A DNA stretch of 64,000 bases from Eledone cirrhosa (lineage: Eukaryota). The stretch spans positions 216,380,001-216,444,000 of the forward strand of contig OZ024740.1 of NCBI GenBank assembly GCA_964016885.1, in the 5' to 3' direction. A model generated the notes under the pieces. That model ran no database searches. It had not been told where the DNA came from and saw nothing but the letters and a program-made list of their open reading frames with translations. The number at the start of each line of letters is the position of its first letter. Position 1 is the first letter of the stretch. The translations under genes were made by a program, and so were the position numbers. Below, one piece after another: positions 48,769 through 54,015 of this stretch.

Positions 48769-49228
48769 ATATTTATTAAAATAACAGATTAAAGTTTAAG
48801 CAAAGAATCGCTGCTTTCACCCTTAACGGGATCTTCTGAAACTAACAAAGTCAATCTGTGAACGCAGAAGTGAATATTTCAAAAAACGTTGCAACCGGAG
48901 GAAGACAGGAAGACAATACTTTGGTTCGTGGAAACGTTCCCTGGCTTCGTTTTTTCCCGTTCTTTGCCAGGGAACGTTTCCACAAACCAAAGTATCGTCT
49001 TCCTGTCTTCCTCCGGTTGCAACGTTTTTTGAAATATTCACTTCTGCGTTCACAGATTAACTTTGTTAGTTTCAGAAGATCCCATTAAGGGTGAAAGCAG
49101 CGATTCTTTGCTTAAACTTTAATCTGTTATTTTAATAAATATTTGCTCTACGGTTCTTATATATTTGATATATATTTATCCTTATCGAGCCCTCTTTGGA
49201 TTTTAGTCTTCAAATTTATTATTATTAC
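48769..49228 (+). mobile_element. fold-back element in (TA)n (177-bp arms, 20-nt loop, about 86-bp tail), variant hammerhead in each arm
   Basis: Arms 48769-48945 / 48966-49142; same family at 50181-50410 and 53437-53686. Confidence 0.88.
49068..49118 (+). ncRNA. hammerhead-like motif with CAGAAGA core (mirror copy at 48793-48843, minus strand)
   Basis: AGUUU-CAGAAGA-U-CCC(AUUAA)GGG-U-GAAA-GCAG(CGAUUCU)UUGC-UU-AAACU, AATAAA at 49134. Confidence 0.7.
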
Positions 49229-49285
49229 TATATATATATAATAGAAAAGACGAGGAAGTTTCGTTTACATATGAAAAATATTTGT

Positions 49286-49388
49286 GTATCGACCTGTTAC
49301 GCGCGTTTTGCAGAGGTTTGGCTCAAGGTGACCCATAGGAGTTATGGACCTGACTCTAGTATCAATCTGCTCCTCAGACTGGTGATAC
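49286..49388 (-). ncRNA. decayed hammerhead motif (GAAA to AAAA) in a TA-flanked insertion at 49240-49430
   Basis: GUAUC-ACCAGU-CUGAGGA-GCAGA..61 nt total..UCUGC-AAAA-CGCGCG-UA-ACAGGU-C-GAUAC. Confidence 0.7.
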
Positions 49389-49449
49389 GACAAAAGATAT
49401 ATTTTTGTTGTGGTATGTGGACCAAGAATGTATATGTATATATATATAT

Positions 49450-49669
49450 AGGAACGATCGACTTTCGTCAAATCAGACCGAGGGAACAATGTTTCCGTTG
49501 GTCTTTCCAATTGCTAATACTATCTATCGGTCGCAACTCCAGGTAGAAGGAGCAACGTGAAATAAAGTGTCTTGCTCAAGGACATAACGCATCGCCTGGT
49601 CCAGGAATCGAACTCACAACCTTATGATTGCGAATCCAATTCTCTAACCACTCAGCCACACGCCTTCAC
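49450..49669 (-). mobile_element. tRNA-derived SINE family B variant
   Basis: Reverse complement GTGAAGGCGTGTGGCTGAGTGGTTAG...GAGTTCGATTCC...TCCTTGAGCAAGACACTTTATTTCAC. Confidence 0.85.
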
Positions 49670-49813
49670 TATATATATATATATATATATATATATATAT
49701 ATATATATATATATATATATATATATATATATATATATATATATATATATATATATATATATATATATATATATATATATATATATATATATATATATAT
49801 ATATATATATAAG

Positions 49814-50124
49814 TGGAGGCACATGGCTTAGTTGTTAGAGTATTGGCCTTGCAATCGAAAGGTTATGAGTTCAATTCTCAGACCGGGTGATGTGTTGTTT
49901 CCTTGAGCAAGAGACTTTATTTCATATTGCTCCAGTTTACTCAGCTGTAGAAATGAGACCACTGCAAAGTGGTCGTGGAGGTGCCACGGCAAAAAAGCAC
50001 CCAGCACTCACTGTAAATGAGGTTGGTGTTAGGAAGGGCATCCAGCTGTAGAAATCAAGCCAGAATCAGTTCCCGTCCCACCCTTGCAAGCAGGGAAAAA
50101 GCGGACGTAAAATGAAATGATGAT
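49814..50124 (+). mobile_element. SINE family B with RTE-derived 3' tail
   Basis: tRNA-like head, CORE/Meta-like TCCTTGAGCAAGAGACTTTATTTC, tail matching 60985-61250. Confidence 0.88.
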
Positions 50125-50180
50125 ATATATATATAGGCATTTTTTTGTGTGCGTATGTGTGTACTATCTACACTATATAT

Positions 50181-50410
50181 ATTAAAATAACAGATTAAAA
50201 TTTAAGCAAAGAATCGCTGCTTTCACCCTTAGTAAGATCTTCTGAAACTGAGTTTCAGAAGATCCCGTTAAGGGTGAAAGCAGCGATTCTTTGCTTAAAC
50301 TTTAATCTGTTATTTTAATAAATATTTTCTCTATGGTTTTATATATTTTGGTATATATTATCCTTATCGAGCCCTCTTCGGATTTTAGTCTTCACATTTA
50401 TTATTATTAC
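50181..50410 (+). mobile_element. short fold-back copy of the 48769 family (69-bp arms, 1-nt loop at 50250)
   Basis: Arms 50181-50249 / 50251-50319; hammerhead-like motif 50251-50301; same tail. Confidence 0.88.
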
Positions 50411-50811: not shown

Positions 50812-50930
50812 GTTCCGATGAGCCGCTCTGTTTTTAATTATGTTAATTATTTTCAACTGAACCAGATCAATAATGATATATAGTCATCTGATCCAGAGAT
50901 ATTATATGGAGTAGCGAAACAATTGTAAAC
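50812..50930 (+). ncRNA. hammerhead motif with CCGAUGA core and 94-nt stem II
   Basis: GUU-CCGAUGA-GCCGCUC...GAGUAGC-GAAA-CAAUUG-UA-AAC. Confidence 0.65.
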
Positions 50931-50953
50931 GGACATTATTATTATTAATATTA

Positions 50954-51143
50954 AAAGTGGGCGGTGGATTGGCAGTATAGGTAGAGTGTTGGAGGCCATG
51001 CTTTCCAGCATAGTTACGTCCCTTTACGATTTGAGTTCAAATCCCGCTGAGGTTGACTTTGCCTTTCATCCTTACGGGGTCGATAAAATAAAGTACCAGT
51101 GATGTACTGGGTAATTGCTGGCCTTGTGCCTAAAGTAGAAACA
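50954..51143 (+). mobile_element. SINE family A with about 16-bp TSD
   Basis: ATTATTATTAATATTA at 50938-50953 and 51144-51159; empty site preserved in the left hairpin arm. Confidence 0.92.
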
Positions 51144-51677
51144 ATTATTATTAATATTATTATTATTATTCTCTACATTCCTTACATCAAACTAAAATAT
51201 GTTGACAATCTTTTAATAATGTCTTCCTTGTGAAATTTGTGTTCTTGTTTTGCTTAACTAATGAATAATTCCAGCTCTGCGCGCCTAACTTCTGCATGAA
51301 CCCAGCCACCTAGCTGATTTCTACTGCATATTGCACATTGAGCACATGCCTTTACGCTTTGGCTTCTAACTAATTCACCAATCTCTCCTCTCCTATCTCC
51401 ATCTCTCTCTTTAAGATTGGTTACTCTTGAACTGTGTATATATATATATATATGTATTTATCATTGGAACATGAATGTGTGTGTATAAATGTCATTGTAG
51501 AAGGAATGTGAAATATATTTGTGTATATATATATCACTGTAGGCACAAGGTGAATTACATGTGTGTGTTGTGGGAAGATATCCAACATGATGAGGCATGG
51601 CACAACTTGTTTGTGATCCATTAAAGTAACTTCTAAGTGAGTTACTTTATTTTACATTGTCACAGTTGTTGGAGGTA

Positions 51678-51957
51678 TCATCATCATCATCATCATCATC
51701 ATCATCAACGTTTAACGTCCGTGTTCCACGCTTGCATGGGTTTGGACGGGGGTAGTCCCACTTGAGGCAAGAGTGATTGTCTTGCTCGCATAGGACTGTC
51801 TGGCAGGTTTTCTACAGTTGGATGCCCTTCCTAACACCAACCACATTTACAGTGTGGGTCTGGGAGGTTTTTACCGTGTTGCCTACACGGCCACATTACA
51901 GCGTGGACTGTGTGTTTTTTTGTCGTGACACCTACACGATCTCATTTGTTTCGGCCT
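51678..51957 (-). mobile_element. young RTE 3'UTR fragment
   Basis: Appears identical to 30977-31225 over about 250 bp. Confidence 0.9.
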
Positions 51958-52769
51958 GGATAGTTGAGATCATCTCTGAATAAGGGACCTTATCATTTGA
52001 GAATATAGAGCTGATTATCTGCTCTGAGTTCAAATCCTACCAAAATCATCTTTGTCTTATATCCTTTTGGTGTTGATAATATAACAGTCCAGGAGTGCTG
52101 GATTGGTGGAAGTGTTAGAACAATTACCACAACATGATGCCTTGTGGTATTTGTTCTTGCCCTTTGCATTCTCAGTTCAAATCCTGTTATGGCTTATATG
52201 AGTAGTCACCTATACTAACCCCATCATCAGACTTTTGGATGCTTCTAGTTGACTCCACTCTGTTCCAAGCATTCAGACTAAGTCTGTTGGTTTGAGGATA
52301 TCTTTATCCCTCCAACCTGTCTTGGAGGCCCTGGAAATAATTATAGACATTGATTTATACTGTTTTGAAAAATAAAAACAGAATTACAGGAAAAATGTGA
52401 ATATGGAACACCAAATTTAACAACTATTCAGAAACTATGTAACAAAAGCCCCCCATTTCTTGGTCAGATGCCAAAAGCTATATAAGTTAACCTCTGACCA
52501 TTTCCCTTTAAAACTTGTAAATATTCTAATGGTGTATTATCATCTTTATTCTGCCATCAAAGCTAAATCTTTTACTTCCTGAATGAACTGAAAAATGTAC
52601 CTAGACAATTGACAAAAAATCTATGAAGATCAAAATACTGAGGATACAAAATTGGAAGAGACTGATATGTTCTTTACTAGAGTTCAACATGTTTCTATTA
52701 ATTATGTCAGGTCTTATACTTCAGATTAATTTTCCTACATTTTAACACTTGTCCTATTATTGTGTCTAT

Positions 52770-53250
52770 CATCTAAATAACAATGAAAGTATCTAAATAG
52801 CAATGAAATTATAGAAATAGTAATGAAAGTGTCTAAATAACAATGAAGTCATCTAAAAAACAATGAAGTCATCTAAAAAACAATGAAGTCATCTAAATAA
52901 CAATGAAGTCATCTAAATAACAATGAAGTCATCTAAATAACAATGAAGTCATCTAAATAACAATGAATTAATCTAAATAACAATGAAGTCATCTAAATAA
53001 CAATGAAAGCGTCTAAATAACAATGAAGTCATCTAAATAACAATGAAGTCATCTAAATAACAATGAAGTCATCTAAATAACAATGAAGTCATCTAAATAA
53101 CAATGAATTAATCTAAATAACAATGAAGTCATCTAAATAACAATGAAAGCGTCTAAATAACAATGAAGTCATCTAAATAACAATGAAAGCGCCTAAATAA
53201 CAATTAAAGCATCTAAATAAGAATGAAAGCGTCTAAATAACAATTAAAAG
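52770..53250. repeat. 20 bp minisatellite, about 24 copies
   Basis: Unit ATCTAAATAACAATGAAGTC. Confidence 0.97.
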
Positions 53251-53408
53251 ATTCTAGATTTAGAAGTCCCTCTGGATATTTAACGTTATAAAGCTTCAAT
53301 GAAGGAAGTCTTGCTCAATATATAAATTTTACTTTGAATTAACCAATGAATCCTTGCAGTACTCTGTACTCTTCATACTTGATCTCATCAGATATGTTTT
53401 ATGGTTAA

Positions 53409-54015
53409 CTAGCAGAATAGCCCGGCGTTGCTCGGGATTTGCTCTAGGGTTCTTATATATTTGATATATATTTATCCTTATCGAGCCTCGTGAAATAAAT
53501 ACGTTTGTTTATATTTTGTTATTGTGTATGCAAAAATATCTGTACACAAATATATAATCATATATATATATATTAAAATAACAGATTAAAGTTTAAGCAA
53601 AGAATCGCTGCTTTCACCCTTAACGGGGTCTTCTGAAACTAAAAAATCAATCTGTGAACGCAGAACTAAATATTTCGAAAAACGTTACACACTATATATA
53701 TACACACACTATATATACATATATACACACACACACACACCACGTCATAATGTCGTAATGTCGACAGACAGATATTATAAGGGTGCAACGTTATATCTAT
53801 GTATCTATCTAAAAAGAAAGACTAAGAATTATAGAGAGAGATCGCTAAATCGCCTAATGCGGTCCCTAGGGCATTGAACATTTGAAATTTGTTTTGCTCA
53901 AAACACTCACAGGATCATAAGTATTACATGTGTAAAGTTTGAAAACAATCAGTTGGGTGGTTCTTGAGTTTTAGGGACTCAGACAGACAGACATTCTCTG
54001 TTTTAGATATATAGA
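53409..54015 (-). mobile_element. non-autonomous Helitron containing fragments of the hammerhead fold-back family
   Basis: 5' TC at 54015, hairpin CCCGGCGTTGCTCGGG at 53421-53436, 3' CTAG at 53409-53412, A^T target. Confidence 0.85.

Follow-up and report, generated by a model that had tools for sequence, protein, structure and literature searches.

Within a 64,000-nt stretch of the Eledone cirrhosa genome (contig OZ024740.1, positions 216,380,001 to 216,444,000; hereafter the window), five hammerhead ribozyme motifs carry adenine instead of uridine at position 4 of the catalytic core (U4A), and this A4 is the consensus of the whole repeat family to which they belong, several subfamilies included. 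The letters CAGAAGA occupy positions 3 to 9 of a type I hammerhead layout in five of five arms, as the original prediction had read them, and to judge from the sequence the arms are the 3′ ends of a Penelope-like retrotransposon of the Hydra clade, an element that the prediction had not named. U4A is a real and family-wide variant of the core, apparently unreported, and the element carrying it is of a known kind.

When only letter 4 of a 34-nt pattern is allowed to vary, the genome holds 18,542 exact matches with A at position 4 and 204 with C, G or U together (98.9% A). The reversed control pattern has no exact match genome-wide, and the CAGAAGA motif therefore is not a chance occurrence. The 100 non-A matches listed (42 G, 36 T, 22 C) lie in mixed subfamily backgrounds. 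A4 is present in all 19 copies checked that have an intact open reading frame (ORF), in all 39 young copies chosen by protein, in 46 of 49 tail-chosen copies (the three exceptions are fold-back junctions), and in 26 of 26 copies of the old subfamily that were picked through a flank lying upstream of, and outside, the motif, 4 of the 30 loci so picked having no motif. It is likewise present in 26 of 26 copies of a captured fossil that is 19% diverged in its flank. Contigs under four other organism labels, which may be close relatives or the same species relabelled, show no other letter where they cover position 4. The prediction that U4A is the family consensus rather than decay thus holds.

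Could the window copies instead be local duplicates of one decayed insertion, with CUGAAGA as the consensus elsewhere? A CUGA-core pattern has 1,380 matches in the genome, 91 of the 100 listed being family-like by eye, and at first these resembled a U4 subfamily. However, the 42 matches that we read in 39 loci comprise 39 palindromic fold-back junctions, located at or beside position 4, and 3 truncation junctions; none has an intact stem I, and we rejected a canonical U4 sister subfamily on these grounds. The reading favoured loci with a perfect stem II and skipped four places already among matches listed earlier. Already refuted by the genome-wide count of position 4, the duplicate explanation retains practically no weight. 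Position 4 is the middle base of the palindrome TTC-N-GAA, so that two cDNA ends can join there with one strand reading T. In the tail-chosen sample, 14 of the 54 copies reaching the motif end between −50 and −39. Genome-wide there are about 1,200 fold-back junctions centred on one 7-nt quasi-palindrome in the core (loci L181-L219), a clean data set on the joining of two cDNA ends by Penelope-like elements.

The original prediction spoke of five arm copies in independent insertions. The five arms make up three insertions. One is an inverted pair (48.8-49.2 kb), one a fold-back (50.2-50.4 kb), and the third, counted in the prediction like any other arm, is a 53.6-kb fragment that is a passenger in another repeat. 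The parts are:

48,769-48,945, minus strand: left arm of insertion 1, an inverted, 5′-truncated copy of the element's 3′ end
48,784-48,859, minus strand: hammerhead and distal stem I of that arm (core stem I 48,843-48,793; A4 at 48,837)
48,946-49,230, plus strand: right arm of insertion 1, a sense copy of the 3′ end with a long tail
49,052-49,127, plus strand: hammerhead of that arm (A4 at 49,074; predicted cut after 49,113)
49,139-49,230, plus strand: optional tail between the two 3′ ends, continuing into the ORF in tandem copies
50,175-50,249, minus strand: left arm of insertion 2, a fold-back centred on 50,250 (hammerhead 50,249-50,199; A4 at 50,243)
50,251-50,412, plus strand: right arm of insertion 2, with a long tail (hammerhead 50,251-50,301; A4 at 50,257)
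53,408-54,016, no strand assigned: non-autonomous host repeat around the 53.6-kb fragment; both inner flanks of the passenger recur jointly
53,437-53,487, plus strand: second captured piece in the same host repeat, a tail fragment (98% identity to the tail)
53,566-53,689, minus strand: old-subfamily 3′ fragment, the passenger (hammerhead 53,640-53,590; A4 at 53,634)

The inverted arms of insertion 1 are 177 nt long and 98% complementary. The short end, where the left arm begins, lies some 28 nt beyond the predicted cut (after 48,798), and the tail of the right arm stops about 116 nt past its own, both in (TA)n. In the right arm, distal stem I pairs 49,052-49,060 with 49,119-49,127, and proximal stem I pairs 49,068-49,072 with 49,114-49,118. 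The left arm of insertion 2 has a weakened stem II and is without the distal stem I. The window copies are truncated and probably inert.

Both inner flanks of the 53.6-kb fragment recur together in 10 other loci. Pieces of the A4 element have been picked up by non-autonomous repeats on at least two occasions and dispersed to hundreds of sites (L353-L412; window 53,408-54,016). The ends of the host repeat in the window resemble those of Helitron-type elements, and the capturing repeats as a whole have putatively Helitron-like ends. Two sets of copies that might have been retrotransposed subfamilies, one with a broken stem II (206 matches) and one without the hammerhead (487 matches), are passengers in a non-autonomous repeat with no linked ORF, and both were rejected.

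A relaxed descriptor allowing one core mismatch finds these five motifs and three canonical ones of other families in the 64-kb window, and nothing else. Rfam returns no ribozyme match in the window at the gathering threshold and none in the full element at E≤5. This silence is uninformative, since the full-element Rfam scan also missed the motif of a second family (locus L161). Within the unit, the Rfam and descriptor scans reveal no second or different ribozyme.

What kind of element carries the motif? Read from the flanking DNA of other copies, the unit is 3,259 bp long and has four parts: a 709-aa ORF, roughly 1.1 kb of 3′ region, the hammerhead and the tail. In tandem copies the tail leads on to the following ATG, some 160 nt downstream of the predicted cut. 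The unit holds one hammerhead-like motif only, with a CAGA core where Hydra-clade elements have a canonical hammerhead in the pseudo-long terminal repeat (pLTR). By eye, the ORF contains the reverse transcriptase (RT) motifs QFD and YRDDG and the GIY-YIG-type endonuclease motifs VYKC...AYIGLT. Direct Pfam and PDB scans of the 709-aa protein gave no match; it has 475 homologues at E≤1e-50, one of them annotated PF01541. The Hydra clade is defined by RW[K/R], DKT, CxCX5C, and CxxC and CxH, with no CCHH (Craig et al. 2021, PMC8557442). In the 709-aa protein RWK is present as RLRWRAF (R for K), DKT as SDKT, the linker CxCX5C as CNCRNRVDC, and CxxC/CxH around conserved E and N as CDLC...E...N...CKH; CCHH is absent. 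Judged by these motifs, which were read by eye, the element belongs to the Hydra clade. The family also displays (TA)n insertion, pLTR tandems, frequent inverted 5′ copies and the tail. Downstream of the predicted cut its insertions run on for about 25 or about 116 nt; the copies in 40 loci include 32 short ones, 25 long ones and 10 that continue into an ORF. By analogy with the Anolis element of PMC11167929 the two ends that bound the optional tail are likely two reverse-transcription start sites.

A search with a 189-aa piece of the protein returns 63,186 first-look candidates, and the tail has 20,439 exact matches. Among 70 loci picked for long frames there are 19 distinct intact ORFs, a median of 1.2% from their majority. 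For 13 ORFs of equal length, dN/dS is 0.12 for variants common to at least 3 copies and 0.5 for rarer ones. By these sequence measures the family is large, young and recently active, and the suggestion that the lineage still mobilises is borne out by its many full-length open frames and the low dN/dS of shared variants. We rejected two other classes of element. In a non-LTR retrozyme, non-coding tandem units would each carry a hammerhead, but the arms come from an element of 3.26 kb that codes for protein and are its truncated ends; in a miniature inverted-repeat transposable element or other DNA transposon with terminal inverted repeats the ends would be fixed and symmetrical, but here each copy has its own arm lengths and junctions, and only one of the two ends includes the tail. 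We also looked for a closer sister family in which the ancestral state could be read: the nearest outside protein is 56% identical and comes without DNA context, and a genome search with it, under a stricter first look, returned only the A4 family. The 5′ ends of full-length copies cluster at +104 to +134, near the tail end, and this cluster may mark a transcription start or a unit boundary. Upstream of the hammerhead, locus L074 (6,330-6,560) has some 110-130 bp of its 3′ region duplicated internally.

The motif otherwise has the form of a type I hammerhead. Of the core rule C3 U4 G5 A6 N7 G8 A9 only position 4 departs; the other six positions fit, and G12 A13 A14 (GAAA), the A15.1-U16.1 pair and H17 (here U) are as required. 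Stem I has 5 bp, which the original prediction gave as AGUUU/AAACU in all arms; four arms read so, and the left arm at 50.2 kb reads AAAUU. Beyond an internal loop lies a 9-bp distal helix (pair probabilities 0.75-1.0 in folding), an extra helix that had been overlooked. Stem II, taken for a plain helix, has 3 Watson-Crick pairs above a U·U mismatch (C·U in the 53.6-kb copy). The prediction called all stems intact except stem II of the 50.2-kb left arm, which can in fact be closed with two G·U pairs. For stem III, described there as a real 4-bp helix, 5 bp are possible, but a competing register is 1.3 kcal/mol more stable. Stems I, II and III can all form a three-stem junction with an open stem I, at a low predicted share of the ensemble, and the arms fold with unremarkable z-scores (−0.5 to 1.4).

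Sequence comparison indicates that the motif is likely under selection. The fossil is an older copy that was captured and spread by a non-autonomous repeat (206 exact matches, A4 in 100 of 100 listed). Across 26 of 30 loci, the 4 recombinant or deleted loci being excluded, its majority departs from that of the young copies at 3 of 69 motif sites versus 38 of 198 flank sites (p=0.0014), a contrast on which we base this conclusion. Outside the selecting pattern, 1 of 39 motif sites differs (p=0.005). One of the three motif changes is a G·U/A-U exchange in distal stem I and the remaining two disrupt stem II of the passenger; divergence returns within the internal loop (2 of 7 sites) and immediately beyond the helix (3 of 11). 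Similarly, the old and young retrotransposing subfamilies differ at none of the 69 motif sites and at 26 of 355 other sites.

What should A4 do to the ribozyme? In folding of A4 copies, A4 pairs with U11.1 in a 5-bp helix that joins both core strands with a probability of 0.2-0.5; this core-locking helix has a probability of 0.08 with G4 and of no more than 0.02 when a natural U4 copy is folded. One hammerhead has been scanned completely for double mutants, and there all single and double mutants of the CUGA turn have low activity except for the C3/G8 swap (PMC9901934). A natural viroid U4C variant is slower in vitro yet infectious, and tertiary contacts have been proposed to offset core variants (PMC3088659). 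A phage selection, in which transitions are sampled for the most part, gave 44 single inactivating mutants, none of them changed at U4 (PMC4075628). We found no natural U4A in the literature, on which the figures of PMC3088659 may bear. Genomic junctions were read for traces of cutting. No insertion ends at the cut site among 54 tail-chosen copies (95% bound 5.4%; one of 100 loci was left out because its alignment failed), and none does among the 19 intact-ORF copies; of these, 8 run through the motif upstream and 9 start at +104 to +134. In a canonical-core control family, 0 of 13 copies end at the cut site and 9 read through.

We propose, at about even confidence, that the ribozyme with A4 cuts slowly, that its fold probably remains under selection, and that uncut RNA is the template for copying. 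A4 would lower cutting by disturbing the uridine turn and through the pairing with U11.1, the 5-bp helix locking the two catalytic strands together. Most transcripts would thus stay uncut and usable as template, and residual cutting may need the element's protein. Reverse transcription would start at two points downstream of the cut site, as the Anolis element suggests. Every ORF-bearing copy would derive from RNA uncut at the 3′ hammerhead, because the layout is the same as in Anolis, with the start sites downstream of the hammerhead. More speculatively, A4 could have originated when the middle base of TTC-N-GAA was flipped at a place where two cDNA ends often join. In a bolder form, which we think rather unlikely, this first natural U4A hammerhead would be a switch: an A4-U11.1 off helix would shield the template until the element's protein refolds it, a brake encoded in the core would replace the usual Penelope dimer brake, and the letter would have been flipped by fold-back joining.

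Several observations weigh against a slow-cutting, selected ribozyme. The hammerhead fold is rare in the predicted ensemble for U4 also (0.0028 vs 0.0016, 37 °C), and the folding model is therefore a weak guide. We found no published U4A cleavage rate, although the heat-map values of PMC9901934 could hold one. Since the canonical-core family behaves alike, the absence of cut-site junctions is uninformative on activity. The block without old/young differences covers the whole tail (−48 to +118) and thus does not single out catalysis; the constraint may act on a region recognized by the RT. The old-type set in the 0 of 69 comparison was partly picked by motif similarity, a comparison that the flank-picked set (26 of 26 A4) repeats. 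Finally, the two stem II changes of the fossil may have arisen in its life as a passenger or earlier.

The alternatives differ in what they take the conserved motif to be. It could be a catalytically dead hammerhead, kept as a structure or sequence bound by the RT or endonuclease beside the start sites, an explanation that we hold to be doubtful but well within reach: the other core letters are unchanged across 19% flank divergence, the rest of the motif retains the clade's usual form, and position 4 is the most tolerant core position (PMC3088659, PMC4075628), all of which speak against a loss of catalysis. At the other extreme, the variant could be fully competent, with the long stem I, the monomer-size stem III, loop contacts or protein offsetting U4A. 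Strong local constraint is consistent with this, as are the 9-bp distal stem I, whose sole subfamily change is the G·U/A-U exchange, and the tertiary contacts proposed to offset core variants (PMC3088659). We nevertheless judge full competence distinctly unlikely, as all non-compensatory CUGA mutants have low activity in the one-hammerhead scan (PMC9901934), no second core change able to compensate is present, and CUGA is found in 26 of 26 Hydra rows (PMC8557442 File S2) and in the other recurring families.

Conservation could also arise without function if a relic had hitchhiked in one master copy and the subfamilies had swapped a shared 3′ end. Zero differences over the 166-nt block could mean recent exchange of 3′ ends, and mixed copies exist (e.g., loci L354, L361). 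Yet the fossil, residing in another repeat, cannot swap ends by retrotransposition and keeps the motif all the same, and it diverges right at the helix edges; we regard the relic as very improbable.

Other repeats accompany the A4 family. An inverted pair at window positions 37,860-38,120 belongs to a different hammerhead family with canonical CUGAAGA cores (37,924, minus; 38,008, plus); its stem III is palindromic, and stem II again rests on a U·U. A third hammerhead at 42,180-42,240 (minus), with a canonical CUGACGA core, recurs at other loci. Directly after insertion 2, at 50,457-51,267, are nested inverted repeats with arms of 124 and 91 nt, 99% complementary, which are probably the inverted ends of another element; 52,780-53,240 is a tandem array with a 20-bp unit. 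Elsewhere in the genome (L321 at 3587, 5094, 7897 and 9399; L322) is a second young Hydra-clade family, with many 714-aa frames 43% identical to the A4 family's protein. Each unit has two hammerheads: the one ahead of the ATG is canonical, and the other has G at the cut site and by its sequence should not cut. By eye its protein resembles Hydra-1_Obim of Octopus, an element distinct from the A4 element in protein start and hammerhead.

The hammerhead of Penelope-like elements may cut precursors, be a parasite or be dispensable. The A4 family, among the largest of the recently active families in the genome, is a natural test of whether the ribozyme is needed, as a core change expected to cripple cutting is combined with a fold kept through subfamilies. 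The same genome supplies controls, at least 8 other recurring hammerhead families in its loci all having CUGA. Conversely, should the A4 motif cut well, the core rule needs an exception and descriptor searches miss whole families. A metagenome scan gave 7 loci, 4 of which share one identical canonical CUGAGGA motif.

How does the element compare with known systems? Like the Hydra-clade elements of Craig et al. (2021, PMC8557442), it has a single ORF, the clade motifs, a C-terminal GIY-YIG-type domain, (TA)n targets, pLTR tandems, inverted 5′ copies and a type I hammerhead near the 3′ end. In File S2, U·U under stem II (14 of 26 Hydra rows) and a cut-site U (10 of 26) occur as here, whereas CUGA is found in 26 of 26 against CAGA here; with the former two ordinary in the clade and CUGA universal in it, U4A is the single real deviation. 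Other differences are the loop of stem III, 1-3 nt and palindromic in the clade and 7 nt here, and the unit length, listed up to about 3 kb and 3.26 kb here. The closest precedent for the core change is the viroid U4C (Perreault et al. 2011, PMC3088659): it too occurs naturally at position 4, and it lowers activity in vitro but is tolerated in vivo. There, however, a pyrimidine replaces a pyrimidine in a variant, whereas here a purine is fixed in a whole retrotransposon family. The metazoan Penelope-like hammerheads of Cervera and de la Pena (2014, PMC4209133) likewise lie in pLTRs, occur in many dispersed truncated copies and have low expected activity; their U3-A8 variant is a compensatory pair swap, while U4A has no partner change and stands beside a full stem III. 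Finally, in the PAc Poseidon element of Anolis carolinensis (Frangieh et al. 2024, PMC11167929), as here, the hammerhead lies upstream of two 3′ ends bounding an optional tail and no insertion or read ends at the cut site. Reverse transcription of PAc Poseidon starts at the two tail-bounding sites, and catalytic mutants of its hammerhead leave insertion in vitro unchanged. PAc Poseidon differs in its canonical core, its measured protein-assisted cutting and its clade, and the tail of the A4 element is about 90 nt.

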